A stretch of 64,000 nt of DNA from positions 386,903 through 450,902 of the forward strand of contig CBDCYR010000005.1 of NCBI GenBank assembly GCA_965224275.1, in the 5' to 3' direction. The notes beneath the pieces were generated by a model. That model did no database searches. It saw only the letters and a list, made by a program, of their open reading frames with translations, and was not told the origin of the DNA. Positions 9,049 to 28,598 of the stretch are shown here, piece after piece (positions within the stretch are counted from its first letter, which is position 1; each line of letters begins with the position of its first letter). Source of the DNA: Alphaproteobacteria bacterium (GTDB taxonomy: Bacteria; Pseudomonadota; Alphaproteobacteria; SHVV01). Position numbers and translations under genes: made by a program.

Positions 9049-9081
9049 CGATCAGTCCCTGTCGTTCATCGGGCCGAACCG

Positions 9082-9378
9082 CTAATCCATGCCCTCGAAA
9101 ACGCGGATATCGCGCACCACCGAATCGTCGCCGAGTTTTTCGAGCGCGGCTTGGTAGCCATCACTGGAATAAGCGGCAACCGCGGCATCGAAACTCTCAA
9201 ACTCAAGCAACACGGTGCGTTCGTTCTTGCCCGCTTCGAACGCTTGCACGCGGCCACCGCGGGCCAGGATCTTGCCGCCGGCTGCCTGAATGGCGGGACC
9301 CGCGAGCTTGGCATATTCCGCCAGTGCATCCGGTTTGGAGATCGAGTGATAGGCCGAGATCCAGTATCCTTTAGCCAT
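9082..9378 (-). CDS. DUF1330-family small protein
   Basis: 98 aa; N-terminus MAKGYWISAYH..., typical of DUF1330. Confidence 0.55.
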   Translation of the reverse strand: MAKGYWISAYHSISKPDALAEYAKLAGPAIQAAGGKILARGGRVQAFEAGKNERTVLLEFESFDAAVAAYSSDGYQAALEKLGDDSVVRDIRVFEGMD

Positions 9379-9440
9379 GTTTTTCCTCCCTAGTTGATAT
9401 CGTAAACCTTAGCACGGCTGCGCTTGCAGAACGCAGCCCC

Positions 9441-10343: not shown

Positions 10344-10486
10344 GCCATCGCTCCTTCCGATCCCATTTTACACACAAGGCGAACTCTCCCAGATGCCGGC
10401 GGACTCAACGGGTGATCGTATGAGCCCACTCGTCTAGACTTCCCTGGCTCCGATGTCGAAGGCGACTGTTCTGAGGAGGTCCGTGA

Positions 10487-11653: not shown

Positions 11654-11840
11654 ATGCGTTCTATCGAACCGGCAGGCGAAACGCGTTAGCGTTTCTGCCG
11701 AGAGGTCCCAGCTAATGCTCACCAGAGCATTGGCTACCCGACAAGCGAAACGCGTTAGCGTTTCTGCCGAAAGGTCCCAGCTAATGCTCACCAGAGCATT
11801 AGCTACCCGACAGTCGAACCGCGAAGCGGTTCTGACGAAA
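11644..11840. repeat. Hairpin-rich intergenic region containing a 69-bp direct repeat (2 full copies, 11676-11744 and 11745-11813, plus a partial third) between convergent genes
   Basis: Palindromes GAACGCtaaatGCGTTC, GAAACGCgttaGCGTTTC (x2), AATGCTCaccagAGCATT (x2), GAACCGCgaaGCGGTTC, CCCAGCgaaaGCTGGG. The two units differ at about 3 positions. Confidence 0.6.
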
Positions 11841-11963: not shown

Positions 11964-12722
11964 CTACCCGCCGCCAACACTCTTGCCGCCGTCCACCGGC
12001 ACCACCGCCCCGGTGATCCACGCGGCAGCCGGCGACCCGAGAAACGCGACCATCTCGGCGACCTCGGAGGCTTCGCCGATCCGCCCAAGCAGATAGCCGC
12101 GACCGCGTCTTTTCACATAAGCGCCATAGGTCGCCGCCGTCAAACCAACGTGGTCGTGAAGGATTCGAGTCCGAACCAGGCCCGGGCTGACCGCGTTGAC
12201 CCTGACGCCGGCCGGTGCCAGTTCCACCGCCAGCGCCTTCGTGAACGCCTCGACGCCGCCTTTGGTTGCCGCGTAGATCGCCAGACCCGGCGATGGTCGA
12301 TGCGCCTGCGCTGACGATATGTTGACGATCGCACCCTTGACCCGGCGCAACGCCGGGATCGCGGCCAGACAAACGTTCATGGTGCCGACCAGATTGGTGC
12401 CAATCACCTGCTCGATCGTGGTTCGCCGGATCTCGCCGATCCGCTCCTCGCGCATGATGCCGGCGCAATTGACCACGACATCAACACGACCGAGGTCACC
12501 CACGATCGCCCGCACGGATCGCTTGACTTGCGCCTCATCGGTGACGTCGCAGGCCAGCATCGTCAACCGTTCGCCGCGACGGCTGCGAATATGACTCGTC
12601 GTTAGATCAACAATCGCAACCCGATAACCACGCGCCGCGAACGCCGAGGCGCAGGCACGCCCGATCCCCCCGCCACCGCCCGTAATGACCGCAACGCGAT
12701 CGGGCTTGCGCCCAGTTGCCAC
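11964..12722 (-). CDS. Short-chain dehydrogenase/reductase (SDR)
   Basis: TGGGGGIG Rossmann motif near the N-terminus; 252 aa. Confidence 0.8.
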   Translation of the reverse strand: MATGRKPDRVAVITGGGGGIGRACASAFAARGYRVAIVDLTTSHIRSRRGERLTMLACDVTDEAQVKRSVRAIVGDLGRVDVVVNCAGIMREERIGEIRRTTIEQVIGTNLVGTMNVCLAAIPALRRVKGAIVNISSAQAHRPSPGLAIYAATKGGVEAFTKALAVELAPAGVRVNAVSPGLVRTRILHDHVGLTAATYGAYVKRRGRGYLLGRIGEASEVAEMVAFLGSPAAAWITGAVVPVDGGKSVGGG

Positions 12723-14168
12723 CTACTTCTGATATGCCGCGCGGCGGTCGACCAGGCGCTTGGGCTTGCCCTCGCGTCCCCCCACATTGGCGATCTCGTC
12801 GAGACTGCCTTGCGCCACGATTTCGACGTCGACGCCGAGCCCGAGGTCACCCTTGAGCAACTCCGCCATCTTTTCCTTGAGGCCTTCGGCCGATCCGGCA
12901 TCGTTGCGGACCTCGATCTGCACCGTCATTTCCTCGCGCTTGACGCCGTTTTTCACCACGGCATCGGCGATGCAGATCCACTCACCGGTCGTGCGCTCAT
13001 CGCTTTGCACCGCGTTGAGGCAAGCCATCGGGTTGAGATTGACGCCGCGGATCTTGACCATGTCGTCCGAGCGGCCGAGGAAATGGTCCATGCGGCGAAA
13101 ATTGCTGCCGCATTCGCAGGTATCGGTGTGCAAAATGCGCCCGAGATCGCGCAGATTGAAGCGGATGATCGGCGGCATCGAGCGGTGGAACACCGTCACC
13201 ACCATGTTGCCGGTCTCACCATGCGGCACGGGTTCGCCGGTTTCGGTATCGACGATCTCGAAATACATACAGTCCTCCTGGAAGTGGAGGCCGTTCTTGA
13301 ATTGGCACTCGAAGGCGCCATCGCCCATCTCGTTAGTGCCGTAATTGTCATACACATTGCAACCCAGCGCCTCTTCCAGCTCGGCCCGCAACTTGCCCTC
13401 GGTGTCGGGGCCGAGAAACGCCAGCACGAACTTCGTGTTGAGCTCGCGGAAATCGCGGCCGAGTTCCTCGCGGCTCGCTTGCGCCAGGCGCAACATGTAT
13501 TCGGGAAACGAGCACCACAGATTGGTGCCGTAATCGAACGCGATTTCCATCTGTCGCCGGCTCGGCGTCACCACGCCGGTGCCCGTGGTCAGTGGCAAGA
13601 TGCCGAGATAATCGTGCACACCCTTGTAAACGCACCACCCGAGATTGCCGAGCGCCAGACTAACCGGAATCTGCATGACATCGCCGGGCCGGGCGCCCAA
13701 TACATAGAGCGTTCGCGCCGCCGTGAGCCCATTGAGTTCCCACTCCTGCGGCGTGTAAAGCGTTACCCGGGGCTTGCCCGTGGTGCCACCGCTGGTCTGC
13801 ATCTTAAAGGGCGTCGCTGCGAAGTCGGCCGGGCCGACATTGTGGAACTCGCCGAACGGCGGGGTCTCGAGTTGATCCTGTTTGACATCGTCGGAATTAT
13901 AGGTCGGGACCTTGTGGCTATCGTCGATGCTCTTGATGTCGTCGGGATTGAGACCGGCCGCCTGCCAGCGTTTGCGGTAGAAAGGGTTATCCCAGCCCAG
14001 CTTGACGCAGCGCAGGAAGCGTTCGTTTTGCAGCGCCCGTACACGCTCGGCCGGCCACTTATAAACGGTGTCGACGAACACGTCGGGCACCGGATAATCC
14101 TGGTGCAGCTGCGCCCAGTCTATCGAGTTGTGGTAGATCGGCAGCTTGCTCGCCGGAAACTCACTCAT
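12723..14168 (-). CDS. Phenylacetate-CoA ligase (PaaK)-family adenylate-forming enzyme, copy 1
   Basis: Motif TSGGTTGKPRV and PaaK-like C-terminal domain. Probable start at the second in-frame ATG (MSEFPASK, about 14168) with a purine-rich RBS. The ORF-track start is 14222. Confidence 0.7.
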   Translation of the reverse strand: MSEFPASKLPIYHNSIDWAQLHQDYPVPDVFVDTVYKWPAERVRALQNERFLRCVKLGWDNPFYRKRWQAAGLNPDDIKSIDDSHKVPTYNSDDVKQDQLETPPFGEFHNVGPADFAATPFKMQTSGGTTGKPRVTLYTPQEWELNGLTAARTLYVLGARPGDVMQIPVSLALGNLGWCVYKGVHDYLGILPLTTGTGVVTPSRRQMEIAFDYGTNLWCSFPEYMLRLAQASREELGRDFRELNTKFVLAFLGPDTEGKLRAELEEALGCNVYDNYGTNEMGDGAFECQFKNGLHFQEDCMYFEIVDTETGEPVPHGETGNMVVTVFHRSMPPIIRFNLRDLGRILHTDTCECGSNFRRMDHFLGRSDDMVKIRGVNLNPMACLNAVQSDERTTGEWICIADAVVKNGVKREEMTVQIEVRNDAGSAEGLKEKMAELLKGDLGLGVDVEIVAQGSLDEIANVGGREGKPKRLVDRRAAYQK

Positions 14169-14340
14169 CGCCCAAATTCCCCCCGCCTTTTGTTCCTTCG
14201 GTTGCGCACACATCTCACTCATCTAGACGCGCTGGTACAAGTCATCGTCGCGCGTTTGTGCTATCCAACGCTCGTACAGGCAAGGCTAACATCCGTCCGC
14301 AACGGGTTGAAGTCACGCCACGTTACGAATGGGGAGGATC

Positions 14341-15210
14341 ATGAGGGTTTTTGACTGCCACTCTCATTGGAGCACGGAACGCGGTTACATTTTTCAAGAT
14401 CCGAAAGAACGCGCCAACCAGGAAGAGATCTGGGGCACCACTGCCGAGTTTCAGACCGAACAGGAAATGACCGACACGTTCCGCAAAAACAATGTGCGGA
14501 CCGTGCTCGATCTCGCGCTAACCGTTTGGATGGACGATCTCGACGAAATCAAGGCCGCGCATGATTACACCTTCGAGGTGCAGCGTCGAAACAGTGACGT
14601 AATTTTCGGCCACTGGTTGTCGTTCGATCCGCGTATCGGCAAGGACGGCATCAAGGAATATGAACGCGCCATCGCAGCTGATGCCGGTTTCATCGGCTTC
14701 GGCATCATCGGCCAAACCGCGGGCGGACTTCCGGCCAGTGATCCGATCTGGGACCCCTTCTACAAAACCTCGATCGATGCCGGTATTCCCGTCCTCATCC
14801 ATTGCGGGCTCACCGGCATCGGCCAGGGTCTGCCCGGCGGCAAGGGCATCCTGCTCGATGACGGCCACCCCCGCCACATCGATGCCGTCGCCGCGCGATT
14901 CCCCGAGCTCAAAATCCTCGCGGCGCGCCCCGCCTACCCCTGGCAGGACGAAATGATCGCCATCCTGCTGCACAAGGGCAACGTTCATTACGAACTGCAC
15001 GGCTGGTCACCCAAGACATTGCCACCGCAACTGCTGCGCGAGATTGGCGGCCGCTTGCAGGACCGCATCATGTTCGGCTGCGATTTTCCGGTGCTCAAAT
15101 TCGAGATGATGATAGAGCGCTGGCAGGGCTTGGGTTTCTCCGACGAAGTGCTCGAAAAGGTGTTCCATAAGAATGCCGAAGCCTATTTCCCGAAAGCGGC
15201 GATCAACTAG
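14341..15210 (+). CDS. Amidohydrolase-2 (PF04909) family protein
   Basis: GGAGGA RBS before ATG 14341 (MRVFDCHSHW). C-terminal FGCDFP. Confidence 0.7.
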   Translation: MRVFDCHSHWSTERGYIFQDPKERANQEEIWGTTAEFQTEQEMTDTFRKNNVRTVLDLALTVWMDDLDEIKAAHDYTFEVQRRNSDVIFGHWLSFDPRIGKDGIKEYERAIAADAGFIGFGIIGQTAGGLPASDPIWDPFYKTSIDAGIPVLIHCGLTGIGQGLPGGKGILLDDGHPRHIDAVAARFPELKILAARPAYPWQDEMIAILLHKGNVHYELHGWSPKTLPPQLLREIGGRLQDRIMFGCDFPVLKFEMMIERWQGLGFSDEVLEKVFHKNAEAYFPKAAIN

Positions 15211-15322
15211 GAAAACGCTACTCATTCGACGAGCTACGGTTTGCGGCGCGCCCCCTGGGGAGTGGGCGGGAGTGGGGGCCGTTTGTTTCAAGCGTTTGTG
15301 ATTCTGAACACGAGGATAGGCA

Positions 15323-16111
15323 GTGGGCATGGACCTCAACTTAGGTGGCCGCAAAGCGCTGATCACCGGCGCGTCCAAGGGGATCGGTCGCGCCATCGCC
15401 AAACAGCTTGCCGAAGAGGGCTGCGACCTCTATTTGGCGGCCCGCACCGAAAGCGAACTCCAAGAGCTCCAAGATGAACTGCCGACGGCGCATGGCATCA
15501 GCGTCGAGATCTTCGCGCTCGATCTTAGCGTCAGCGCCAATCTTCAGATCCTGGCCGACGCCTGTGGCGATGCCGGCATTCTCATCAACAATGCCGGTGG
15601 CATTCCCAACGGCACCATCGAAGAGGTCGATGAAGCCAGGTGGCGGGCGACCTGGGACCTCAAGGTCTTCGGTTACACCAACCTCACCCGGCACTTCTAC
15701 ACAAAGATGAAAGCACGCCGCAGCGGCGTCATCATCAATATTATCGGTAATGGCGGCGAACGACCGGCCGCGAACTATGTCGGCGGCAGCACCGGCAATG
15801 CCGCGCTAATGGCGTTTACCCGAGCGGTCGGTGGCGACAGCCCAGAGGACGGGATCCGCGTGCTCGCAATCAACCCGGGGCCGGTGCTCACCGAGCGCCT
15901 CGAAGAACTACTGCGAAAATCCGCAGCCGACCGTCTTGGCGGCGCCGAGAAGTGGGAGGAACTGGTCGCACCAATGCCCTTCGGGCGCGCCGGCACGGTC
16001 GAGGAAGTCGCGACCATGACCGCCTTCCTGGCCTCGGATCTATCGGCATACACGTCGGGAACGGTGATCACCATCGATGCCGGTTGGGTCTATCGCGGGC
16101 CGTTGATGTAA
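15323..16111 (+). CDS. Short-chain dehydrogenase/reductase (SDR)
   Basis: ITGASKGIGRAIA motif and NNAG motif. Confidence 0.8.
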   Translation: MGMDLNLGGRKALITGASKGIGRAIAKQLAEEGCDLYLAARTESELQELQDELPTAHGISVEIFALDLSVSANLQILADACGDAGILINNAGGIPNGTIEEVDEARWRATWDLKVFGYTNLTRHFYTKMKARRSGVIINIIGNGGERPAANYVGGSTGNAALMAFTRAVGGDSPEDGIRVLAINPGPVLTERLEELLRKSAADRLGGAEKWEELVAPMPFGRAGTVEEVATMTAFLASDLSAYTSGTVITIDAGWVYRGPLM

Positions 16112-16148
16112 CGCAACAAACGCACAATCCGGATTCGCGAAACCAACC

Positions 16149-18221
16149 ATGGCCTTTCGGATCGGTGTCGACGTCGGCGGCACATTCACCGATTTCCTGC
16201 TGCTCGATGGTGAGGGCACGGCAACGGTCTACAAGGTGCTATCGACACCCGATGATCCATCGCGAGCGGTGCTCGATGGCCTCGCGCGAATGGCCGATGA
16301 TGTGGGCCTCGACTTAGGCCAATTCATCGCCGGCATTGTCCTCATCGTCCACGGCACCACAGTCACGACGAACGCGGTGCTGACCGGCAAGACCTCGCCC
16401 ACCGGACTGCTCACGACGCGGGGCTTCCGCGACGCCCTGCAAATGCGGCGCGGCGTTCGCGAGGTGCAATACGACAACAAATATCCAGCCGCCGAACCGC
16501 TGGTCCCGCGCTGGTTGCGCCGCCCGGTGAGTGAGCGGGTCGACGCGCAAGGGGCGATCGTCCAGCCGCTTGACCTGGCTGACGTCGACGATGCGATCGT
16601 GCGGTTCAAAGGCGCCGGCATTGATGCGGTCGCGATCTGCTTCATGCACGGTTACGCCAATAGCAATCACGAACAGGCCGCCGCCGATCGTGTCGCCCAG
16701 CTCATGCCCCAGGCCTACCTCTCGGTATCGAGCCAGGTGCTGCCGCAGGTGCGTTTCTACGAACGGATCAGCACCACCGTCCTCAACGCCGCCGTCGGTC
16801 CCATCCTCAGCCGCTACCTCGCCAACCTCACCGCGCGGCTTGCCGATCAGGCCTTCGCGGGCGTGCTGCTCATTATGAAATCGAACGGCGGGGTCACCTC
16901 GCCCAAGGTTGCCTCCGATCTCGCCGCGAGCACCCTGCTGTCGGGTCCGGCCGCGGCGCCGGTCGCCGGCCTCGCCTATGCCACACCACATGAAACAGGT
17001 GATTTCATCACCATCGACATGGGCGGTACCAGTTTTGATGCTGCCCTGGTTAAAGATGGCACGCCGGCGATCACCACCGATAGCCGGGTCAACCGGCATG
17101 CGCTTAGCCTCGCCAGTATGGAGATCAACACCATCGGCGCTGGTGGCGGCTCGATCGCCTGGATCGATGATGGTGGTCTGTTGCGGATGGGACCCGACAG
17201 CGCCGGCGCCAGTCCCGGTCCTGTCTGCTACAGCCGCGGCGGGACCGCCCCGACCTGCAGTGACGCCGATCTCGTGCTCGGCTATCTCGATGCCGATTTC
17301 TTCGCCGGCGGGACCATCGCGCTCGATCACGCTGCCGCCGAGCGGGCAATCGCCGAACAGATCGCCAAGCCGCTCGAGATGACCACCCTCGACGCGGCCT
17401 ACGGCATGTATCACTTGATGAACGTCAATATGGCTTCGGCGATCCGCGAAATCTCCGTACAAAAAGGCTATGACCCGCGCGACTTTCTGCTGATCTGCGC
17501 CGGCGGCGCCGGGCCCCTTCACGCCGCCGCCATTGCCGCCGAGCTTGAGGTTCGGCACATCCTCATTCCCAAGGACTCGTCGATCTTCTGCGCCGCCGGG
17601 ATGTTGCACTCCGATCTCAAACACGATTTCGTTCGCAGCTACCACACCGAATTCGCAGCCTCAGCGATCGACACCGCCCGATTTGCGACCCTGATCGGCG
17701 AGATGCAAAACGCCGGCGATACAATCTTGGCGGCCGAGGGCGTCGCAGCGGCCGATCGCGACGCCGAATTTTCGCTCGACCTGCGCTATGTCGGCCAATA
17801 TCACGAAGTTAACGTCTCGGTTTCAGCGGCCCAGCTGGCCCCACCTGACTTCGAGGCGATCGCGACAGCTTTTCACGCCGCCCACGACCGGCTTTACGGT
17901 TATTCCCTGGCCGACGATGATCGCCAGGTGACCCTGGTAAACATTCGCATGACGGCTATCGGCAGAACCGAAAAGCCCGAACTTCGCGCTGACGCTGCGC
18001 GGGGCAGCGTCGATGCCGCCCGCAAGGGTCAACGCCAGGTCTTCCTTTCCTCGCAAATGGCGTTCTCTACGCTCGATGTCTACGACGGCGACGCTATGGG
18101 ATCCGGCCATGCGCTCAAGGGCCCCGCCATCATCGAACAACGCAACACCACCATTCTGGTGCCACCGGATCACCACCTGACGTGTGATGCGTTGGGCAGT
18201 TTTCTGTTGAGCGCGTCATGA
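16149..18221 (+). CDS. hyuA: Hydantoinase/oxoprolinase family A subunit (HyuA-like, ATP-dependent)
   Basis: 690 aa. N-terminus MAFRIGVDVGGTFTDF is the characteristic HyuA start. Stop overlaps the hyuB start (ATGA). Confidence 0.85.
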   Translation: MAFRIGVDVGGTFTDFLLLDGEGTATVYKVLSTPDDPSRAVLDGLARMADDVGLDLGQFIAGIVLIVHGTTVTTNAVLTGKTSPTGLLTTRGFRDALQMRRGVREVQYDNKYPAAEPLVPRWLRRPVSERVDAQGAIVQPLDLADVDDAIVRFKGAGIDAVAICFMHGYANSNHEQAAADRVAQLMPQAYLSVSSQVLPQVRFYERISTTVLNAAVGPILSRYLANLTARLADQAFAGVLLIMKSNGGVTSPKVASDLAASTLLSGPAAAPVAGLAYATPHETGDFITIDMGGTSFDAALVKDGTPAITTDSRVNRHALSLASMEINTIGAGGGSIAWIDDGGLLRMGPDSAGASPGPVCYSRGGTAPTCSDADLVLGYLDADFFAGGTIALDHAAAERAIAEQIAKPLEMTTLDAAYGMYHLMNVNMASAIREISVQKGYDPRDFLLICAGGAGPLHAAAIAAELEVRHILIPKDSSIFCAAGMLHSDLKHDFVRSYHTEFAASAIDTARFATLIGEMQNAGDTILAAEGVAAADRDAEFSLDLRYVGQYHEVNVSVSAAQLAPPDFEAIATAFHAAHDRLYGYSLADDDRQVTLVNIRMTAIGRTEKPELRADAARGSVDAARKGQRQVFLSSQMAFSTLDVYDGDAMGSGHALKGPAIIEQRNTTILVPPDHHLTCDALGSFLLSAS

Positions 18222-19984
18222 CCAAGGCGCCTCCTTCGTCAGGCGCCAGCCGCATTGATCCGATCCTGTTGTCGGTCCTGCAACGCCGCTTCAAGTCGAT
18301 CACTGAGGAGATGGGGCAAACCCTGCTGCGCACGACGCGATCGCCGATCCTTAGCGAGGCCCGCGACTTTGTCACCGGTTTGTATGACGCCAAGGGCCGC
18401 ATGCTAGAGCAAACCGAATACATCCCGGTGCTCGCCTTCGCGCTCCAACCGGTCTGCGAATTCATCATCGACTACTACGGCGATGATATTCACGACGGCG
18501 ACGTCATTCTCCACAACGACGTGTTCAGCCGTGGCAATCAAAACGCGGACGTCGCCGCCTTCAAACCGGTTTTTTATGGCGGCGAACTCGTCGCCTGGGC
18601 CGCGTGCAAGGGCCACCAGGCCGATATCGGCGGCGCCGTCGCCGGCGGCTACAACCCCGAAGCGCGCGAGGTTTGGCAGGAGGCCTTGCGCATTCCGCCC
18701 GTCAAGGTCTACGCCGCCGGCCGCTTTCTCAACGATGTCTGGGATCTGATCTTCGCCAACGTCCGCTACGACATCGTCGCCGAAGACATCAAGGCCGAAA
18801 TCGGTGGCTGCGTCGTAGGCGAACGCGCGGTCCAGGCGCTATTCTCGCGCTACGGCCTGGCGCCGATGCTGCGCCATATCGAAACCCTGTTCGATCGCAC
18901 CGAACGCATGGTGCGCAGCGAGATCGGGCGCATCCCGGATGGCACCTACCACGGCGAAAGTTTCGCGTTTTATGATGGCGTCACCGACGGCTCGAAGATG
19001 AAGATCAACCTCGCCGTCACCGTTGCCGGCGATTCCATCACCTTCGATTTCGCAGGGTCATCGCCGCAAACGCCGGGGTTTGTCAACGCCCCCTATTCGT
19101 CAACGGCCTCGGCGGTCATGCTGACGTTCCTGATGCTGATCAATCCCGACATTCCCCATAATGATGGCATCTTGCGGCCGATTACAATCGCCATCCCCGA
19201 AGGCACCTTCCTCAATGCCGGGTTTCCGGCCGCAACCACGTTTGGCAACTCGCTGACCGGCCCAACCTCGGATGCCATTTTTCGCGCGCTTTCCCAGGTT
19301 CTCCCCGAAACCGTCAGTGCCGGCTGGAACCGCATGATTTCGTTCGCCATAACCGGCACCGACCCGCGCCACGACCGGCCCTATGTCGACATCTTTTTTC
19401 TGTCGAGCAAAGGCGGGTCCGGTGCGGTCGCCCAGGCTGACGGCTACGATCATATCGGCCTGATCAACTGCGCCGGCGGTATCCTGGCGCAGGACTACGA
19501 GATGTTTGAAATTCAAGACCCGCACGTCCTGGTGCGTCACGAATATTGGCCGGATTCGGCAGGCGCCGGCGAATGGCGCGGCGGTCTCGGCACTGAATGC
19601 GAAATCGCGATCAACGGCGAAAGCCTCACCGGGGTGGCCTTCGGCGACGGCGTCGAAAATGAAGCCCGTGCCTTTGGCCTGTTCGGCGGCACGGCTGGCG
19701 TCACCAACCAGCTCTACCTGACCGAACCCGATGGCTCCGTGCGCCGGCCCAAAGCTAAGGAGGTCGTGCGCGACATCGCCACCGGTTCGGTGTTCGTCCA
19801 GCAGGCCGGCGGCGGTGGCGGCTATGGCGACCCCCGCCGCCGTACCGTCAGCCGGGTGGTCGACGATGTCAGGAACGAACTCATTAGCGTCGAGCGCGCG
19901 CGCACCGACTATGGCGTCGTCATTGATCCGCAAACCTTCGAGGTCGACGCCGCCGCCACTGAACAATTGCGAGCCAAATCATGA
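18218..19984 (+). CDS. hyuB: Hydantoinase/oxoprolinase family B subunit (HyuB-like)
   Basis: 588 aa with HyuB family features. Translationally coupled to hyuA and to the downstream VOC gene. Confidence 0.85.
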   Translation: MTKAPPSSGASRIDPILLSVLQRRFKSITEEMGQTLLRTTRSPILSEARDFVTGLYDAKGRMLEQTEYIPVLAFALQPVCEFIIDYYGDDIHDGDVILHNDVFSRGNQNADVAAFKPVFYGGELVAWAACKGHQADIGGAVAGGYNPEAREVWQEALRIPPVKVYAAGRFLNDVWDLIFANVRYDIVAEDIKAEIGGCVVGERAVQALFSRYGLAPMLRHIETLFDRTERMVRSEIGRIPDGTYHGESFAFYDGVTDGSKMKINLAVTVAGDSITFDFAGSSPQTPGFVNAPYSSTASAVMLTFLMLINPDIPHNDGILRPITIAIPEGTFLNAGFPAATTFGNSLTGPTSDAIFRALSQVLPETVSAGWNRMISFAITGTDPRHDRPYVDIFFLSSKGGSGAVAQADGYDHIGLINCAGGILAQDYEMFEIQDPHVLVRHEYWPDSAGAGEWRGGLGTECEIAINGESLTGVAFGDGVENEARAFGLFGGTAGVTNQLYLTEPDGSVRRPKAKEVVRDIATGSVFVQQAGGGGGYGDPRRRTVSRVVDDVRNELISVERARTDYGVVIDPQTFEVDAAATEQLRAKS

Positions 19985-20382
19985 GCAAACCCCACGTTGA
20001 CCACATCGGCATTATCGTCGGCGACCTCGACAGCGCCGTAGCAACTTTTACACCCCTGTTCGGCGGTCCGCCGATCAGCAGCAAGACCCTGACCGAGGCC
20101 GGCATTCGCGTTGCCGAGTTCGAGGCCGCCAACATTACCGTCGAACTGATCGAATATTGCGAGGCCGGCGCCAGCTTCGCCAAAACCGTGATGGGTGCAG
20201 CGCAGGGCCTCAACCACTTGTCGCTTCGCGTCGACAACGTCGATGACTCCATCAGATCATTGGCCGCCTCGGGCGTGACCGTGATGGATGGATTTCCCAC
20301 CCAGGGCGCGCACGGCACCGTCGCCTTCTTCGACCCCGACACCACCCAAGGCCTGCTACTCGAAGTCTGCGAGCCCGACTAG
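19981..20382 (+). CDS. VOC/glyoxalase-family protein (methylmalonyl-CoA epimerase-like)
   Basis: 133 aa, HIGIIVGDLD N-terminal VOC module. Confidence 0.6.
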   Translation: MSKPHVDHIGIIVGDLDSAVATFTPLFGGPPISSKTLTEAGIRVAEFEAANITVELIEYCEAGASFAKTVMGAAQGLNHLSLRVDNVDDSIRSLAASGVTVMDGFPTQGAHGTVAFFDPDTTQGLLLEVCEPD

Positions 20383-20404
20383 AGATCTGTTTTGAAAAGA
20401 AGAA

Positions 20405-20500
20405 ATCCCCTCACCCAACCCTCTCCCACTGGGGAGAGGGCTTCCGTTGTGCCCACGTCCAGCTCCCTCTCCCCTCCTGGTGGGAGAGGGCGGGGGTGAG
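20405..20500. repeat. REP-like palindromic intergenic element, two inverted units (CCCTCACCC..CCCTCTCCCactgGGGAGAGGG / CCCTCTCCCctcctggtGGGAGAGGGcgGGGGTGAGGGG)
   Basis: Seen in sequence. Same family as 3762-3849/5244-5270 and 21945-21992. Confidence 0.5.
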
Positions 20501-20534
20501 GGGTACCTGGAATATAAGCTACTGAACCCGCCGC

Positions 20535-21911
20535 ATGACCCCCGATCCCAATCGCCGTCTGTGGAACGAAGCGATCGAATTGATGGCGCCCGATGAGATG
20601 CGGGCGCTGCAACTCGAGCGCCTCAAGGTGCAATGCGCCTACAACTATGCGAGTTCGCCGTTCTATCGCGGACAGTTTAAGAAGGCCGGCATGGCACCGG
20701 CCGATATCCGCAGCTTCGAAGACTTCACCGCCCTGCCGCTGATGACCAAAGACGATCTCCGGCGCGGCCAGGAAGAGTCGATCGAACAGTTCGGCAACCC
20801 CTACGACATCCTGGCCTGCGCACCCCGCACCGACATCGTGCGTATCAATTCGACATCCGGCACCACCGGCATGCCGACGCTGTGGAAGCTCACCCAACAC
20901 GATGTCGGGGTGGTCAGTGAAATGCACGCCCGCAAGTATTGGCGAGCCGGCATTCGCCCCGGCGATATCGTCATTCAGGCCGTGTCGCTGAGCATGTTCA
21001 CCGGCGGTCTGCCCTTGTCGCAGGGGATCCAGAATCTCGGCGCGGCCTGCGTCCCGGTCGGCATCGAGGGCGGCACCAAGCGGGTCCTGCAATTCATCGA
21101 ACTCACCAAGCCCACCGTGATCGTCGCGACGCCGTCGTTCGGCCAGTATTTGATCGAAGAGTGCCCCAAGCACACCGGTCGGCTGGCCAATACGCTGGGT
21201 CTCAAATGGTTTATGTGCGCCGGTGAGCCCGGCGGCGGCGATCCCGAAATGCGTCGTCTGCTGGCCGATGACTTCGGCGCCAAGGTGTACGACCACACCG
21301 GCGGCGGCCATGCTTTCCATGGCATCTCGATCGATGAGCCGCCAGAGCACTACAGTGGCATGACCTTCGTTTCGGCCGACCATTGCCTGCTCGAATTGGT
21401 CGAGCCGTCGACCAAACGACTGATCGCTCTGGCCGACGGTGCCGAAGGCGAAATGATCTGGACGTTCCTCGATTGGCGCGGTGGTCCGCTGATGCGTTTC
21501 GCGGTTGGCGATGTCGCCACCATCGCCACCGGGCCCAGCCCGGACGGCCTGCCAGGATTGCGTTTCAAGATTATCGGCCGCGCCGATGACATGCTTATCG
21601 TCAAAGGCGTCAACATCTACCCCAGCGCTATCCAAGGTGCGATCATGAACCATCGTCCGCAGCTAACCGGCACCTTCCGCATCGTCCTCGATCGCCCCGG
21701 CCCTAAGGTAACGCCGCCGTTGCGCATCCGCCTCGAGCGCGGCCACGACGTCACCGAGGCCGACACCCCCGATATCGAAGCAAGGCTGCGCAAGCAGTTT
21801 CGAGAGGATCTACGGATTAACCCGGCGTTCGAGTGGGTGCCGGCCGGATCAATCGAACGCGCGGCCCACAAAACTCAACTGATAGAAATCGAGCCCGACG
21901 GAGAGTCGTAA
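20535..21911 (+). CDS. Phenylacetate-CoA ligase (PaaK)-family adenylate-forming enzyme, copy 2
   Basis: STSGTTGMPT motif; 458 aa; paralogue of 12723-14168. Confidence 0.75.
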   Translation: MTPDPNRRLWNEAIELMAPDEMRALQLERLKVQCAYNYASSPFYRGQFKKAGMAPADIRSFEDFTALPLMTKDDLRRGQEESIEQFGNPYDILACAPRTDIVRINSTSGTTGMPTLWKLTQHDVGVVSEMHARKYWRAGIRPGDIVIQAVSLSMFTGGLPLSQGIQNLGAACVPVGIEGGTKRVLQFIELTKPTVIVATPSFGQYLIEECPKHTGRLANTLGLKWFMCAGEPGGGDPEMRRLLADDFGAKVYDHTGGGHAFHGISIDEPPEHYSGMTFVSADHCLLELVEPSTKRLIALADGAEGEMIWTFLDWRGGPLMRFAVGDVATIATGPSPDGLPGLRFKIIGRADDMLIVKGVNIYPSAIQGAIMNHRPQLTGTFRIVLDRPGPKVTPPLRIRLERGHDVTEADTPDIEARLRKQFREDLRINPAFEWVPAGSIERAAHKTQLIEIEPDGES

Positions 21912-21944
21912 AGCTATTTCTTCCCCGCAACCCTAGCCAAAGAT

Positions 21945-21992
21945 TCCCTCTCCATCCTTTTGGGGGGAGAGGGGTAGGGTGAGGGGGGCGGC
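21945..21992. repeat. REP-like palindromic element (CCCTCTCC..GGGGAGAGGGGtaGGGTGAGGGGGG)
   Basis: Seen in sequence; same family as above. Confidence 0.4.
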
Positions 21993-22060
21993 TGAGGTCG
22001 CAAGATCGCCCGTTGTGCAGATTTGCTCCCGGCAAACCACGGGTTGAAAGGAAAACAATC

Positions 22061-23359
22061 ATGTCGCAGCCAACCCAGGCCCTGAGAAACGCCCGCGCGC
22101 CGAGAGCGCTCGTGGCCGACCCACCGGCCGAACTGATTCCCGACAGCGAAGACCTGATCACCGTCGATATCGAAATTTCCGCCGGGCGCATCGCCGCGAT
22201 CACAGCACCGTCTGGCACCATCGGCGCCGCTGAGATCGACCTTGATGGCGGCCAGGTGTGGCCGTGCTTTGCAGATATTCACACCCACCTCGATCTCGGT
22301 CACATCTGGCGGCGTGCGCCCAATCCAGATGGATCGTTCGAAACCGCCTTCGCCACCGTTGCCGCCGATCGCGACGCCCACTGGACGGCCGAAGATCTTC
22401 GCCAACGCATGGAGTTTGGCTTGCGCTGCAGCTACGCCCACGGCACCCGCGCCATTCGCACCCATCTCTTGTCGCAACCGCATCAGGCGCCCATCACATG
22501 GGGCGTTTTCCGCGAACTGCGCGAAGACTGGCGCGGTCGTATCGATCTCCAGGCCGTGTCGCTGCTCGTCGTCGATGATTTTCGCGACGGCCAGAGCGAT
22601 GCGATTGCCGATCTTGTTGCCGAGTCCGGCGGTCTGCTTGGCGCGGTCTGCTTCATGCGCCCCGACCTCGACGACCTGTTTGATCGCATCTTCCGGCTCG
22701 CCGGGGATCGCGGGATCGACCTCGACCTTCACGTCGACGAAAGCCTCGACGCGCAGGATAAAGCGCTTCGCCATGCCGCCGCGGCCGCGGTCCGCAACAA
22801 GTTCGAAGGCCGTGTGCAATGCGGCCATTGCTGCAGCCTGTCGGTGCAGTCGGCCGACGATGTCGATCGCACCCTCGATAGCGCGGCCCAGGCCAACTTC
22901 TCGATCGTCAGCCTGCCAATGTGCAACATCTATTTGATGGATCGCGAGGCCGGACGCACGCCGCGCCGGCGCGGCGTCACCCTGGTGCGCGAAATGGCGG
23001 CCCGCGGCATCCCGGTCTCGTTTGGCAGCGACAACTGTCGCGATCCGTTCTACGGCTACGGCGATCACGATGCCTTCGAGGTCATCACCGAGGCCGCCCG
23101 CATCGCCCACGTCGATACACCGTTCGCCGAGTGGCCGCGCAGCGTCACCGCGACACCGATCGACGTCATGGGGCTCGACTCGCCTGGCTTCATCAAAGTT
23201 GGCGAACCCGCCGATCTCGTCTTGTTCAGCGGTCGCTTCTATAGCGAGTTGCTGACCCGGCCACAGACCGATCGAACCGTCCTCCGCAACGGCGAGGCCA
23301 TTGACACAACCCTGCCCGACTATAGAGAGTTGGACGATCTGCTCGTCGGCTCAGCCTAG
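22061..23359 (+). CDS. Amidohydrolase-superfamily enzyme (cytosine deaminase / chlorohydrolase-like)
   Basis: ADIHTHLD (HxH), HVDE and FGSDN motifs. ATG 22061 after AAAGGAAAACAATC. Confidence 0.6.
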   Translation: MSQPTQALRNARAPRALVADPPAELIPDSEDLITVDIEISAGRIAAITAPSGTIGAAEIDLDGGQVWPCFADIHTHLDLGHIWRRAPNPDGSFETAFATVAADRDAHWTAEDLRQRMEFGLRCSYAHGTRAIRTHLLSQPHQAPITWGVFRELREDWRGRIDLQAVSLLVVDDFRDGQSDAIADLVAESGGLLGAVCFMRPDLDDLFDRIFRLAGDRGIDLDLHVDESLDAQDKALRHAAAAAVRNKFEGRVQCGHCCSLSVQSADDVDRTLDSAAQANFSIVSLPMCNIYLMDREAGRTPRRRGVTLVREMAARGIPVSFGSDNCRDPFYGYGDHDAFEVITEAARIAHVDTPFAEWPRSVTATPIDVMGLDSPGFIKVGEPADLVLFSGRFYSELLTRPQTDRTVLRNGEAIDTTLPDYRELDDLLVGSA

Positions 23360-23467
23360 GGCATTGTCGACGTAATCCTCAAAATGCTCGAGGCGAGCGC
23401 TAAACCAAAAATCCGCGCGCCAAGCGCGGTACAAGTGTAGAAACCATAGGAAACCTGGGGAGGATTC

Positions 23468-24217
23468 ATGGGCAAGCTCGACGGAAAAGTTGCGTTCATC
23501 ACCGGCGCTAGCCGCGGCTTGGGGAAAGCCATGGCGATCGCGTTCGCTGCGGAAGGCGCCGCACTGGCGGTCGGCTACAATTCAAGCGCTGAGGGCGCCA
23601 ACGATACGGTCGCAACCATCCGCAAGGCGGGCGGCAATGCTGAAGCCTACCAAGGCGACATCACCGTTCCTGAAGTGGTCGACGGGATCGTCACCGGGGT
23701 GGTCGACCAATTCGGCACCGTCGACGTCCTGGTTAACAATGCCGGCCTCGTAAACGCCTCGCCGCTCAACGAAATGTCGGTTGAAATCTGGGATGCCATG
23801 TTCGCGATCCATGTGCGGGCCATGTTCCTGTGCTCGCGAGCCGTGCTACCGCACATGCTGGCTCAGAAGTCAGGCAACATTATCAACATGGGCGGCACTT
23901 TCGGGGTCACCGGGATGGAGAACTTCACTCATATGTCGGCTGCCAAAGCTGCGATGATCGGCTTCACCCGCGCGCTGGCCAAAGAAGCCGGGCCCAACGG
24001 GATTCGCGTCAACTGCCTGACGCCGGCAATGATTCGTGGTGAAACCACCGCCAATATGCCGCAGGATTATTTGGAATCGTTGCGTCAGCGCTATCCATTG
24101 CGCCGTCTTGGCGAAGTTGAGGACGTCAATTCCTGTGCCTTGTTCCTGGCATCGGACGAGTCCTCGTTCGTTACCGGACAAAACCTCGCGCCCGCCGGCG
24201 GCGAAGTGATGCCCTAA
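23468..24217 (+). CDS. Short-chain dehydrogenase/reductase (FabG-like SDR)
   Basis: ITGASRGLGKAMA and NNAG motifs. Confidence 0.8.
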   Translation: MGKLDGKVAFITGASRGLGKAMAIAFAAEGAALAVGYNSSAEGANDTVATIRKAGGNAEAYQGDITVPEVVDGIVTGVVDQFGTVDVLVNNAGLVNASPLNEMSVEIWDAMFAIHVRAMFLCSRAVLPHMLAQKSGNIINMGGTFGVTGMENFTHMSAAKAAMIGFTRALAKEAGPNGIRVNCLTPAMIRGETTANMPQDYLESLRQRYPLRRLGEVEDVNSCALFLASDESSFVTGQNLAPAGGEVMP

Positions 24218-24293
24218 GCGAAATAAGTCTATTGGCCGTGGCCCGTGGGTCGTCGGCCCCATTCAACAGCACGAACCGCGCGGAGTAATGACG

Positions 24294-25124
24294 ATGAAGG
24301 TCAATGTAGGACTGGTCCAGATGGACTGCTCGGGCGAGCGCAAGGCAAACCTTGCCCGTGCCGAGGAGATGGTGCGGCAGGCTGCCGGCCAGGGCGCGCA
24401 AGTGATCCTGTTGCCGGAAGTTTTTCACGAACTCTTTTTCATCATGTCGCTCGACATGTCGATCTTCGATAAATCCGAGCCGATTCCGGGTCCTATCACC
24501 GATCAGATGCAGGCGCTCAGCCAGGAGCTCGGCGTCGTCATCGTCGCGCCGATCTATGAAAGCGTTGGCAGTAGCGTCTACTACAACTCGGCCGCCGTGA
24601 TCGATGCCGATGGCAGCCTGCTCGGCGTTTACCGCAAAAACCATATCCCGCTCAGCACCAAGTTCTACGAGAAGCTCTATTTCAAACCCGGCAATTTGGG
24701 CTACCCGGTTTTTGATACCAAGTTCGGCCGCGTCGGCATTCTGATCTGTCACGATCGCCACTACCCCGAAGGCGCGCGGGCGCTCGGCCTCAACGGCGCT
24801 GAGATCCTCCTGGTGCCGAGCGCGACGCCAACCGCCAGCCTGTCGGTGCGGGTGTGGGAGAAGGAATTGGCAGCGCATGCGATCTTCAACGAGTATTTCG
24901 TTGGCGGCCTCAACCGCGTCGGTACCGAAGGCGACTACACCTATTATGGCCGCAGCGTCATGTTCGACCCGGCCGGCGAGCTCATCGCCCAAGCCGGCGA
25001 AGGCGAAGAATGCCTGATCGGCGAATGCGACCTCGACGTGATCGTCAGCCGCCGCCGCGCTTGGCAGTTCTACCGCGACCGCCGACCAGACACTTACGAC
25101 GTCCTTACCCAACTTGTTCCCTAG
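24294..25124 (+). CDS. Carbon-nitrogen hydrolase (nitrilase superfamily; N-carbamoyl-amino acid / beta-ureidopropionase-like amidase), paralogue A
   Basis: E (LPEVF), K and C (ICHD) catalytic triad context. Shares long identical blocks with 31224-32087. Confidence 0.75.
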   Translation: MKVNVGLVQMDCSGERKANLARAEEMVRQAAGQGAQVILLPEVFHELFFIMSLDMSIFDKSEPIPGPITDQMQALSQELGVVIVAPIYESVGSSVYYNSAAVIDADGSLLGVYRKNHIPLSTKFYEKLYFKPGNLGYPVFDTKFGRVGILICHDRHYPEGARALGLNGAEILLVPSATPTASLSVRVWEKELAAHAIFNEYFVGGLNRVGTEGDYTYYGRSVMFDPAGELIAQAGEGEECLIGECDLDVIVSRRRAWQFYRDRRPDTYDVLTQLVP

Positions 25125-25149
25125 TAGATCAAGACCGGAGATACATGCC

Positions 25150-25539
25150 ATGACGGCCGCAATTGAGCACATCCATTTCCTGTGCGCCGACCCCGAAAGG
25201 ACCGCGGGTTTCTTCAACACCTATCTCGACGCCGAGGAGATCGAGCGGGTGACGATGCCCGATTGGTTGATTATCCGGCTGCGGATCGGACCGGCCATCA
25301 TCGCCCTGTCGCCGAAACGCGGCGCGCAAGTGCTGGCCGATCCACCGAGCCCGCCCTATCGCGGGTTCTCGCATATCGGCCTCACGGTTGCCGCGGTCGA
25401 CGAATTGGTCGAACGCATGCGCGGTGACGGCATTCCAGTCACGGTCGAACCGTTCGAAATCGCGCCCGGGGTGCGCGCGGCCTATGTGCTGGCCCCGGAC
25501 GACATCGAGCTCGAACTCCTGCAACCGCCCCAATCCTAG
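25150..25539 (+). CDS. VOC/glyoxalase-family protein
   Basis: GGAGA RBS then ATG 25150. HIHFLCADPERT N-terminal VOC module. Followed by short CCTAGG-type micro-repeats. Confidence 0.55.
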   Translation: MTAAIEHIHFLCADPERTAGFFNTYLDAEEIERVTMPDWLIIRLRIGPAIIALSPKRGAQVLADPPSPPYRGFSHIGLTVAAVDELVERMRGDGIPVTVEPFEIAPGVRAAYVLAPDDIELELLQPPQS

Positions 25540-25566
25540 GCGTCCTAGACGTCCTAGGCGGCCTAA

Positions 25567-26498
25567 GAGTCCGACTCGAAACTCTATGTTTGATAACAGT
25601 ACCTTGCGAGCCGCCTTGTGAGGAGTCGGATGTTGGCGACAAGAATCCATGCCTGTGCGGAGGCGATTGATTTCTCCCAATCCTTGGCCAGTCGACGGCA
25701 TCGGTTGAGCCAGGCGAAGGTCCTCTCGACGACCCATCGTCTGGGCAGGAGCTCGAAGCCCTGGGCGGTGTCTGAGCGCTTGATGATCTCGAGCTTCCAG
25801 CGGCCGATGTCCTCAAGGGCGCCCTCGAGTTTCGGTCCCGCGTAGGCGGCGTCGGCGAAGAGGTGACGCAGCCGGGGGAAGCGATGACGGATCGATTTGA
25901 GGACCTCGGGCGCGCCGTCGCGGTCCTGGATATCGGCTGCGTGCACGATCAGGCCGACCAGCAGGCCGAGTGTATCGGTGACGATGTGACGCTTGCGGCC
26001 CTTGATCTTCTTGCCCGCGTCATAGCCCCGAACACCACCGCTTTCCGTGGTTTTCACGCTCTGGCTGTCGATCACCCCGGCGCTCGGGCCGGCCTCGCGT
26101 CCTTCCAGCTCCCGGGCCGCCATGACCAGGTGATGGTTGATGCTCTCCAGCAGGCCGTTGGAGCGCCAGTCGTAGAAATAGCGCTGGACCGTGGAAGGCG
26201 GAGGGAAGTCGTTCGGCAACATCGCCCACTGGCAGCCCGTCGAGGCCATGTACATGACCGCATCCATGACATGGCGCAGGTCCGTCGTCCTCGGCCGGCC
26301 GATCTTCTTGCGCGGCGGCATGAGCGGCGCGATCAACGCCCACTCTCGATCCGTCAGGTCGCTTGCGTAGCGCCCGCCACGGCGCTCATAATTCGGGCGA
26401 GTGATTTCGGTCCACATGTTGTGCCTCCTCGTTTGCTTTGACACAACCGAGTAAGCCACAACCGACTGAAATCACTCAACTAGTTTCGGGTTGGCCTC
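25567..26498 (-). mobile_element. IS5-family (IS427/IS1031-like) insertion sequence copy 1, 932 bp, TSD TAA
   Basis: Terminal IRs GAGTCCGACTCGAAACT / GAGGCCAACCCGAAACT (rc). Flanking TAA at 25564-25566 and 26499-26501. Confidence 0.9.
25584..26459 (-). CDS. IS5-family transposase (DDE), 291 aa. Probable true start at ATGTGG (MWTEI) preceded by GAGGAGG.
   Basis: GRPRTTDLRHVMDAVMYMASTGCQWAMLP and DDE region typical of the IS5 family. Confidence 0.85.
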   Translation of the reverse strand: MAYSVVSKQTRRHNMWTEITRPNYERRGGRYASDLTDREWALIAPLMPPRKKIGRPRTTDLRHVMDAVMYMASTGCQWAMLPNDFPPPSTVQRYFYDWRSNGLLESINHHLVMAARELEGREAGPSAGVIDSQSVKTTESGGVRGYDAGKKIKGRKRHIVTDTLGLLVGLIVHAADIQDRDGAPEVLKSIRHRFPRLRHLFADAAYAGPKLEGALEDIGRWKLEIIKRSDTAQGFELLPRRWVVERTFAWLNRCRRLAKDWEKSIASAQAWILVANIRLLTRRLARYCYQT

Positions 26499-26551
26499 TA
26501 AGCGGCCCGGACGACTGAAACGGCTTAGCGGAGGAGCAACACGGAGTCGCC

Positions 26552-27337: not shown

Positions 27338-27352
27338 AGCCTGCGCGTAGAC

Positions 27353-28564: not shown

Positions 28565-28598
28565 CGGAACAAACCGATCAACAGGGGAGTTACAGCCC

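Follow-up and report, generated by a model that had tools for sequence, protein, structure and literature searches.

What does an ATP-dependent hydantoinase-type enzyme do among enzymes that work on coenzyme A (CoA) esters? The question is raised by a gene cluster encoding such an enzyme, HyuAB, on contig CBDCYR010000005.1 of an alphaproteobacterial assembly (GCA_965224275.1), from which we analyzed a stretch of 64,000 nucleotides, hereafter the window. An earlier annotation made from the letters alone (the sequence-only reading) had placed HyuAB and carbamoylase-like hydrolases at the core of a module at 12723-25539 and regarded the CoA enzymes as foreign flanks; comparison of gene neighborhoods gave the reverse. 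The conserved unit is SDR1-HyuA-HyuB-VOC1-Lig2 (15323-21911), and the remainder of the cluster is a lineage-specific extension. The broader claim, that HyuAB lies in a CoA-dependent context with a cyclic amide or heteroaromatic acid as the most plausible class of substrate, held up. Coding open reading frames (ORFs) were picked by codon-position GC and then scanned against Pfam and NCBIfam, which gave the following core genes:

15323-16111, plus strand: SDR1, short-chain dehydrogenase (SDR; Pfam adh_short/adh_short_C2)
16149-18221, plus strand: HyuA, ATP-binding subunit of the hydantoinase/oxoprolinase type (three Pfam HyuA domains)
18218-19984, plus strand: HyuB, metal/hydrolysis subunit (Pfam Hydantoinase_B, 496.5 bits, full-length); its start overlaps the HyuA stop
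19981-20382, plus strand: VOC1, methylmalonyl-CoA-epimerase-like protein (Pfam Glyoxalase_4); its start overlaps the HyuB stop
20535-21911, plus strand: Lig2, PaaK-type acyl-CoA ligase (Pfam)

Thousands of HyuB homologues, many with more than 70% identity, occur in alpha- and deltaproteobacterial metagenome bins, and the best identity in species-representative genomes was 76%. Eighty-nine loci were fetched via HyuB relatives, namely the 80 best of 387 GTDB species-representative matches (all metagenome-assembled genomes) and nine found by exact look-up; HyuB was 66-94% identical across all of them. The 86 non-window loci, which span Alpha-, Beta- and Gammaproteobacteria, Desulfobacterota and Chloroflexota, were mapped with the window proteins and Pfam-labelled neighbors; single loci are cited below by an L number. 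Partners were counted in the 55 non-window loci with full flanks (at least 4.5 kb upstream and at least 4 kb downstream of HyuB). HyuB was accompanied by HyuA in 54 of the 55, by VOC1 in 52 and by Lig2 in 44, and some CoA-activating enzyme was present in 47. SDR1 was found in 30 and a PreA-like flavoprotein in eight (one or the other in 38), never both. Beside HyuAB, SDR1 orthologues with 54-72% identity occurred in 41 loci, never with the PreA-like reductase, which stood beside the module in 11 anaerobe loci. Lig2 orthologues (57-68% identical) were present in 68 loci, and a VOC gene followed HyuB at a distance of no more than 30 nt in 65 of 71. The unlabelled ORFs of the 86 loci yielded no further conserved family, none being found in more than five loci.

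The identity of HyuAB was examined at the level of domains, equivalog models and structures. HyuA contains the N-terminal, central and C-terminal Pfam domains (299.5, 169 and 66 bits). The NCBIfam CapA and CapB models (NF050156/NF050157) gave 709.4 and 439 bits, against a cut-off of 1000 each, so that the caprolactamase equivalog was not reached. As evidence that would count against it, the sequence-only reading had named a standard 5-oxoprolinase with conserved partners elsewhere, or neighborhoods made up of independently acquired operons. HyuAB is not such an enzyme, staying below the caprolactamase cut-offs and matching no other equivalog; it does have conserved partners elsewhere, but these lie within the finding itself, so the counter-evidence is present by half. 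The nearest solved structure was caprolactamase (6yra_A, 508 bits to HyuA; 6yra_B, 355 bits to HyuB, full-length), and similarity in the PDB decreased from caprolactamase through N-methylhydantoinase and acetophenone carboxylase to acetone carboxylase. Carboxylase structures scored 239-315 bits with HyuA and 80-126 bits with HyuB, acetone carboxylase (Acx) giving 239 and 80, and the Apc models, which gave 330, 203 and 133 bits where 1250-1500 are required, did not support membership among the carboxylases. The subunits comprise 690 and 588 aa, there is no gene for a Cys4 gamma subunit, and the gene after HyuB is the VOC gene. Subunit length and a gamma-subunit gene separate the hydrolase branch from the carboxylase branch (PMC5214803); because the lengths and the missing gamma gene fit this division, we assign HyuAB to the hydrolase branch. 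Its sequence thus predicts an enzyme of the hydrolase type, closest to caprolactamase.

HyuA has the ATP motifs defined for the ASKHA subunit CapA (DxGGTxxD, DxGGT and GxxPGP; PMC8453981) intact, as DVGGTFTD (residues 8-15), DMGGT (290-294) and GASPGP (353-358). At the metal site HyuB lacks a histidine that caprolactamase, hydantoinases, oxoprolinases and ketone carboxylases have in common. The CapB tetrad, Asp41-His99-Asp102-His124, is reported to be invariant among hydrolases and carboxylases alike, with each residue essential (PMC8453981). The corresponding residues of HyuB are Asp50-Gln108-Asp111-His133, i.e., not Asp-His-Asp-His, with the glutamine located in the stretch GNQNADV (residues 106-112, approximately 18533-18553). 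This D-Q-D-H arrangement was found in all 89 homologues with more than 60% identity, and two second-copy paralogues in the same loci have D-H-D-H. This site marks the HyuB proteins with D-Q-D-H as a distinct subfamily. Second, more distant HyuAB pairs lie near the module in L087 (18065-21740), L036, L052 and L074; in L087, a MarR gene and one of the arylmalonate-decarboxylase/EutA-like kind come before the pair.

The conserved partners are CoA-related. VOC1 scored 73.9 bits with TIGR03081 (cut-off 114.95) and aligned over its full length with methylmalonyl-CoA epimerases (MCEs), its His8, Glu55, His79 and Glu128 matching residues of human MCE. These we take to be the metal-binding and catalytic positions of MCE. 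Lig2 and Lig1, a second ligase of the window, gave 214.8 and 199.5 bits with the PaaK model TIGR02155, below the cut-off of 646, which places them in the PaaK-type subfamily only. The closest structures to Lig2 were 2-hydroxyisobutyryl-CoA synthetase (189 bits) and PaaK (184 bits), about equally distant, and its P-loop reads TSGTTG (107-112). In loci without Lig2 a family III CoA-transferase was often close by, tending to sit with a three-subunit molybdenum (Mo) enzyme of the xanthine-dehydrogenase family whose best NCBIfam match was 4-hydroxybenzoyl-CoA reductase. SDR1 is the proposed reductase of the ring or of an enoyl thioester, and since SDR1 and the PreA-like protein are mutually exclusive, they may be functional analogues. 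PyrD/PyrK-like genes beside the module (L087/L023) were also considered as pathway reductases and rejected; the PyrD of L087 scored above the cut-off as a genuine dihydroorotate dehydrogenase and is likely housekeeping.

Twelve acyl-CoA dehydrogenase genes were found near the module in related loci, and nine of them (L030, L036, L038, L049, L058, L067, L068, L082 and L088) encode the motif IGGGTS, in which GGG replaces the usual catalytic YEG. This replacement is the signature of IaaF, the dehydrogenase of the anaerobic indoleacetate pathway that oxidatively decarboxylates benzylmalonyl-CoA enantiospecifically, using the other enantiomer only after epimerization by MCE (PMC8360864). The scans of the window and of the unlabelled ORFs of the 86 loci revealed no B12 mutase and nothing mutase-like.

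Taken together, these partners suggest that the lactam ring of a cyclic or heteroaromatic carboxylate is opened in a CoA-dependent pathway driven by ATP, a reading to which we give about half of our credence. The pathway would begin with uptake of a carboxylic acid in which a cyclic amide (a lactam or pyridone) is already present or arises by conversion. Lig2, or in some relatives the family III CoA-transferase, would form the CoA thioester; a ring C=C bond conjugated to the carbonyl would be reduced by SDR1 in aerobes and by the PreA-like flavoprotein in sulfate reducers, and HyuAB would then open the stable lactam at the expense of ATP. The product would be a 2-substituted (malonyl-type) acyl-CoA, epimerized at the alpha carbon by VOC1, which in many relatives would be decarboxylated and oxidized by the GGG-motif IaaF-type dehydrogenase and passed to beta-oxidation. 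If the activated carboxyl group sits on the carbon beside the lactam carbonyl, opening would give an aminoalkyl- or aminobenzyl-malonyl-CoA directly, and no mutase would be needed to account for an MCE-like VOC1 and dehydrogenases with GGG. The add-on genes of the window lineage probably handle a more substituted substrate or a nitrogen-containing fragment, presumably releasing ammonia. Candidate substrates are oxindole-, quinolone- or pyridone-type acids, such as oxidized auxin or hydroxylated nicotinate-type acids, each of them much less probable by itself than the general reading. The sequences directly show family memberships, motifs, gene order, conservation and the history of the IS insertions; we infer in which order the reactions run, that the intermediate is of malonyl type, what SDR1 does and to which class the substrate belongs. 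A more specific version is tentative, and clearly less probable than the general reading: the module, often joined by the GGG dehydrogenase, may constitute an undescribed, widespread, B12-independent route in which a common natural N-heterocyclic lactam acid (2-oxindole-3-acetate [oxIAA], or a quinolone or pyridone acid) is activated with CoA, opened straight to the substituted malonyl-CoA, epimerized and oxidatively decarboxylated, in both aerobes and sulfate reducers.

Several points weigh against lactam opening on CoA esters. HyuB has glutamine in place of a metal-binding histidine whose mutation inactivates caprolactamase, and with that ligand missing it may catalyze something other than the plain hydrolysis of a lactam. 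VOC1 and Lig2 are each below their equivalog cut-offs, the window cluster has no acyl-CoA dehydrogenase, and the binding-protein likeness described below is at family level only (347-375 bits, full length). That the ligase acts before the lactamase is presumed, and that the malonyl-type intermediate comes straight from ring opening is a conjecture, forced by the absence of an Iaa-type B12 mutase. The add-on genes may not share a substrate with the core. No module member is characterized, and a full-text literature search found no description of the SDR1-HyuA-HyuB-VOC1-Lig2 module.

Genes around the module give clues to the substrate. TRAP or Liv-type ABC transporters were found near it in 33 of the 55 full-flank loci. 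The TRAP binding protein of the sulfate-reducer loci gave 170 bits with 4mnc and less than 70 bits with all others; 4mnc is presumably an aromatic 2-oxo-acid binder. Xanthine-dehydrogenase-family Mo hydroxylases recur near the module, and the window itself begins inside one (28-1494). The module-linked Liv-type ABC binding protein of L088 scored 375 bits with 7YLT and approximately 346 bits with CouP and related aromatic-acid binders. 7YLT is a structure cited in the Variovorax iad auxin-operon paper and is presumably one of the binding proteins of that operon, of which IadK2 binds indoleacetate (IAA) specifically and IadK3 binds oxIAA weakly.

One rival explanation follows from these clues, i.e., that oxIAA (or hydroxylated IAA) is CoA-activated and its gamma-lactam opened in a variant of the iaa pathway. 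Components resembling IaaB, IaaCE, IaaF (GGG) and IaaL are at hand, the likeness of the L088 protein to 7YLT points the same way, and a Rieske alpha/beta dioxygenase adjoins the module in L088. However, the 86 loci have no counterpart of the B12 mutase IaaGH, opening of oxIAA-CoA would give a succinyl-type and not a malonyl-type product, and the window cluster has no indole-specific marker. Moreover, the L088 protein is nearly as close to cinnamate binders, and the canonical iad locus, whose pathway runs via isatin, lacks a hydantoinase. A module devoted specifically to an auxin catabolite is unlikely.

The add-on genes bear on whether the cluster is a unit at all. They are listed here with the two insertion sequence (IS) copies that interrupt them:

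11964-12722, minus strand: SDR0, short-chain dehydrogenase (Pfam adh_short_C2, 198.8 bits); lineage-specific
12723-14222, minus strand: Lig1, PaaK-type acyl-CoA ligase (Pfam AMP-binding and AMP-binding_C_2); lineage-specific
14329-15210, plus strand: Amidohydro_2, member of the decarboxylase/hydratase/lactonase superfamily (Pfam PF04909, 110 bits); first gene of the plus-strand operon
22013-23359 (gene-caller start 22061), plus strand: Amidohydro_3, cytosine-deaminase-like amidohydrolase; lineage-specific add-on
23468-24217, plus strand: SDR2, FabG-like short-chain dehydrogenase (Pfam); add-on
24288-25124, plus strand: CNhyd1, nitrilase-superfamily amidase of the N-carbamoyl-amidohydrolase type (Pfam CN_hydrolase, 204 bits); add-on
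25114-25539, plus strand: VOC2 (Pfam Glyoxalase); add-on
25567-26498, minus strand: IS5-family copy of 932 bp between VOC2 and ECH, with target duplication TAA
26552-27337, plus strand: ECH, enoyl-CoA hydratase/crotonase family (Pfam ECH_1, 197 bits); add-on
27353-28564, plus strand: family III (CaiB-type) CoA-transferase (Pfam CoA_transf_3, 448 bits); add-on
28599-29498, plus strand: alpha/beta hydrolase (Pfam Abhydrolase_1/6), 293 aa in L002
29472-30403, minus strand: second, identical IS5-family copy, with target duplication TTA
30504-30968, plus strand: SnoaL-like protein (Pfam SnoaL, 114 bits); last plus-strand gene of the unit
31224-32087, minus strand: CNhyd2, nitrilase-superfamily amidase (Pfam CN_hydrolase, 204.6 bits), convergent with the operon

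The series from Amidohydro_2 to SnoaL is co-directional with overlaps or short gaps, and SDR0 and Lig1 are divergent from it. Most of the gene list given by the sequence-only reading for 12723-25539 was borne out. HyuA and HyuB, both with full Pfam domains, two PaaK-type ligases (Lig1 and Lig2), the cytosine-deaminase-like Amidohydro_3 and two VOC proteins are located there, and no transporter or regulator is embedded. The families were named essentially correctly, but the interval does not contain four of the genes listed. CNhyd1 and CNhyd2, the nitrilase-superfamily pair, are true paralogues (48% identity), of which CNhyd2 lies beyond the interval; the three SDRs all exist, with two inside and SDR0 just before it; and ECH and the family III CoA-transferase exist beyond the IS element, at 26552-28564. 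Amidohydro_2 at 14329-15210 had gone unlisted, as had the alpha/beta hydrolase and SnoaL gene of the same transcription unit.

The C-N hydrolases, Amidohydro_3, Amidohydro_2, VOC2, ECH, the CoA-transferase and Lig1 occur with HyuB in the close relatives of the window only. CNhyd1/2 homologues stood beside HyuB in L001, L002 and L090 only, with remnants in L003, and among the fetched loci SDR0 was limited to L001 and L002. SDR0, which adjoins Lig1 downstream on the minus strand, is 28% identical to SDR1 and SDR2. Lig1, whose start according to the gene caller in L002 corresponds to window position 14168, is only 24% identical to Lig2, scored 199-212 bits with NCBIfam PaaK models, far under their cut-offs, and has the P-loop TSGGTTG. 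Amidohydro_2 at 14329-15210 had no match in the NCBIfam scan and only a weak PDB match, to an uncharacterized protein. VOC2 had no NCBIfam match and no significant similarity to VOC1, their kinship being one of fold only, and the NCBIfam scores of ECH were all under cut-off. The best NCBIfam matches of the CoA-transferase were of dicarboxylate types (oxalate 366, glutarate 340 and mesaconate 314 bits), again all under cut-off. Neighborhoods of Amidohydro_3 were discarded as a guide to function; in a metagenome scan its homologues of no more than 62% identity had no window genes nearby. L091, a 2-kb metagenome contig, carries a 91%-identical Amidohydro_2 directly upstream of a 74%-identical Amidohydro_3, which suggests that these two add-on amidohydrolases work as a pair.

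The history of the region was traced through its nearest relatives. Exact-protein look-up of HyuB led to L001 and L002, metagenome contigs of 350 kb and 10 Mb. Apart from two insertions, the window matches L002 at 99.9% identity; the insertions are identical 932-bp IS5-family elements (the transposase, of 291 aa, has the Pfam domains DDE_Tnp_1 and DUF4096) whose sites are empty in L001 and L002. L090 likewise has no IS at the 25567-26498 site, and no window IS copy interrupts its operon. ECH, now cut off by the IS from the genes upstream, directly follows VOC2 in L001, L002 and L090, and the alpha/beta hydrolase has lost its three terminal codons to the second IS, with a nine-codon tail in their stead. 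The window has five IS5-family copies with 99-100% identity (25567-26498, 29472-30403, 38398-39342, 50392-51160 [partial] and 56676-57619 [inverted]), the two mapped ones having 3-bp TWA target duplications, which points to a burst of transposition in the very recent past. A VanA-type Rieske oxygenase gene (37753-38433) is cut short by the copy at approximately 38398. Two IS256-like (Transposase_mut) copies at 3849-5244 and 53959-55354 (1396 bp, 100% identical, inverted) bracket approximately 50 kb including the whole operon in a composite-transposon-like arrangement. HyuA of the window is longer than that of L002 by an insertion of 12 nt (4 aa); it is intact in both and split in L001 (7923-10004) into ORFs of 521 and 97 aa, by either a frameshift or an assembly error.

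A known plasmid or catabolic island was ruled out as the source by searches of PLSDB and plasmid sequences: megablast of 12000-30400 and 30401-55400 against PLSDB matched IS elements alone, and tblastn of HyuB against plasmids gave nothing above 38% identity.

The cluster might be an accidental mosaic, with no integrated pathway beyond the core and unrelated genes gathered in an IS-rich island. The window is rich in mobile elements, with at least five copies of the IS5 family, a pair of IS256-like ones and two further transposases, and the add-on genes are missing from all distant loci. In L003 (HyuB 91% identical) the version is degenerate, Amidohydro_3 and a C-N hydrolase being cut by other transposases, and the arrangement in L091 differs. 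Nevertheless, the add-ons are co-directional with short gaps or overlaps, and L090 keeps HyuB through SnoaL in unchanged order at 89-98% amino acid identity (SDR2 98%, in the same position), uninterrupted by the window IS. The SnoaL gene occupies the same position in L002, L090 and L003. The promoter/terminator scan found no strong terminators inside the operon, although its counts were at or below chance and thus uninformative. Gene order repeated at 89-100% amino acid identity on the independent contigs L001, L002 and L090 shows that the clustering is not due to chance, and the region is best read as a single catabolic operon that two IS insertions have recently interrupted. The mosaic explanation is improbable, to the same degree as the auxin one.

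Another alternative takes up the hydantoin/dihydropyrimidine logic of the sequence-only reading, or a creatinine counterpart of it: a cytosine/creatinine-deaminase-like enzyme would produce a cyclic ureide, HyuAB would open it in the manner of N-methylhydantoinase, and a carbamoylase-like C-N hydrolase would free CO2 and NH3, with the CoA enzymes serving an unrelated pathway. All three families are encoded within one operon. The solved structures nearest to CNhyd1 are N-carbamoylputrescine amidohydrolase (197 bits) followed by beta-ureidopropionases and D-carbamoylases, all N-carbamoyl amidohydrolases; its Glu-Lys-Cys triad is visible as LPE, YRK and ICH, and a triad is present in CNhyd2 too. 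N-methylhydantoinase is the second-closest solved HyuAB homologue, and the PreA-like gene of the anaerobe loci belongs to the dihydropyrimidine-dehydrogenase family. However, HyuB is found with deaminase-like and C-N hydrolase genes in the close relatives of the window only, and its conserved partners, a CoA ligase and an epimerase-like VOC protein, would be superfluous for ureides. Amidohydro_3 matched NCBIfam PRK07583 with 612 bits (cut-off 403), but it is distant from solved cytosine deaminases (92 bits) and from AtzC, and the PreA-like protein reached 145 bits against a PreA cut-off of 335. A classical ureide route is thus slightly less probable again than the two preceding explanations.

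Ketone carboxylation, in which SDR1 would make a ketone from a secondary alcohol, HyuAB with VOC1 in the gamma position would carboxylate it to a beta-keto acid and Lig2 would form a beta-ketoacyl-CoA for thiolysis, is equally improbable: the acetophenone carboxylase operon also encodes a CoA ligase for the next step (PMC5214803), the B-subunit gene is followed by a small one, as acxB is by acxC, some modules have thiolase and 3-hydroxyacyl-CoA dehydrogenase genes nearby, caprolactamase itself requires bicarbonate (PMC8453981) and the changed metal ligand of HyuB could mean different chemistry, but both subunits are far closer to the lactamase than to the carboxylases, their lengths are those of the hydrolase branch, VOC1 has no homology with the four-Cys gamma subunit, and the carboxylate-type TRAP/ABC transporters of the full-flank loci would be unneeded for a neutral ketone.

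Lactam opening on CoA esters remains our preferred reading. Further genes that look catabolic lie on both sides of the operon:

5282-7118, upstream block: LeuC/LeuD(DmdB)-type hydro-lyase pair
7193-8104, upstream block: unknown 303-aa ORF
8032-9048, upstream block: 338-aa protein labelled NicX in precomputed Pfam, with no match in our own Pfam and NCBIfam scans
Upstream block, continued: DUF1330 protein, Amidohydro_2 (9441-10343) and GbcA-like Rieske oxygenase (10487-11653)
35369-38433: three tandem VanA-type Rieske monooxygenases (394 aa, 386 aa and a truncated 226 aa)
41466, 51396 and 57961: further Amidohydro_2 genes
47197-50199 and 60276-63419: two TRAP transporter sets

The upstream block (5282-11653) fits a pyridine-ring or aromatic-acid catabolic island, and the region from 35369 onward, with its Rieske, Amidohydro_2 and TRAP genes, is a dense catabolic island. 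The DctP protein encoded at 47197 shares 31.5% identity with its module-linked counterpart in L005. A 69-bp tandem repeat at 11669-11840 (2.5 copies, 89% match, with two palindromes) is located in the intergenic DNA onto which the Rieske gene and SDR0 converge, likewise in L001 and L002, and looks like a REP-like or terminator-like element. Rfam and tRNA scans revealed no riboswitch or other RNA pointing to a ligand.

Hydantoinase-type enzymes that spend ATP on lactam opening are known for only a handful of substrates, with a single predicted case acting on a CoA thioester. The module, at 66-76% HyuB identity over several phyla and almost only in uncultured genomes, may therefore represent an unrecognized and probably common route of N-heterocycle or lactam turnover in soils and sediments. 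Its invariant His-to-Gln change at the catalytic metal site poses a specific question for enzymologists, and the module-linked binding proteins offer a cheap handle for finding the substrate. Should the substrate be an auxin catabolite or a pyridine acid, the module would bear on plant-microbe signaling or on vitamin and alkaloid turnover.

Among known systems, the anaerobic indoleacetate pathway of Aromatoleum aromaticum comprises the ligase IaaB, IaaCE, the CoA-transferase IaaL, the B12 mutase IaaGH and IaaF (PMC5214803, PMC8360864), IaaCE being a predicted, hydantoinase-like 2-oxoindoleacetyl-CoA gamma-lactamase. At the level of families, the module shares with it a PaaK-type ligase beside a hydantoinase-type ATP-dependent hydrolase in one operon, a family III CoA-transferase and, in related loci, the acyl-CoA dehydrogenase with GGG for YEG; a substituted malonyl-CoA that MCE can epimerize occurs in iaa and is proposed here. 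It differs in the VOC and SDR proteins as fixed members, the glutamine ligand of HyuB, the window cluster without an acyl-CoA dehydrogenase and the lack of a B12 mutase in any locus, which rules out that it is the iaa operon. That it is part of the canonical iad locus is likewise ruled out, that locus having no hydantoinase.

The nearest characterized homologues of HyuAB are CapAB of Pseudomonas jessenii and OplAB of P. putida, which have two subunits, the ATP motifs and three of four metal ligands in common with it. The module differs in scoring under the 1000-bit cut-offs, in having Gln for CapB His99, and in a CoA ligase, VOC and SDR where CapAB feeds an aminotransferase route. With hydantoin and pyrimidine systems it shares, in this lineage, HyuAB together with carbamoylase-like and deaminase-like hydrolases in one operon, but that association is unconserved beyond close relatives and the conserved partners are CoA-dependent. 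The apcABCDE-bal and acxABC operons belong to the same superfamily, with a product CoA ligase encoded alongside and a small third gene after the B-type subunit, but similarity to them is much lower, the subunits here are shorter and hydrolase-type, there is no Cys4 gamma subunit, and carboxylate transporters are attached. On these comparisons, the module is best described as apparent kin of hydantoinase-type lactamase pathways running on CoA esters, distinguished by its D-Q-D-H site.

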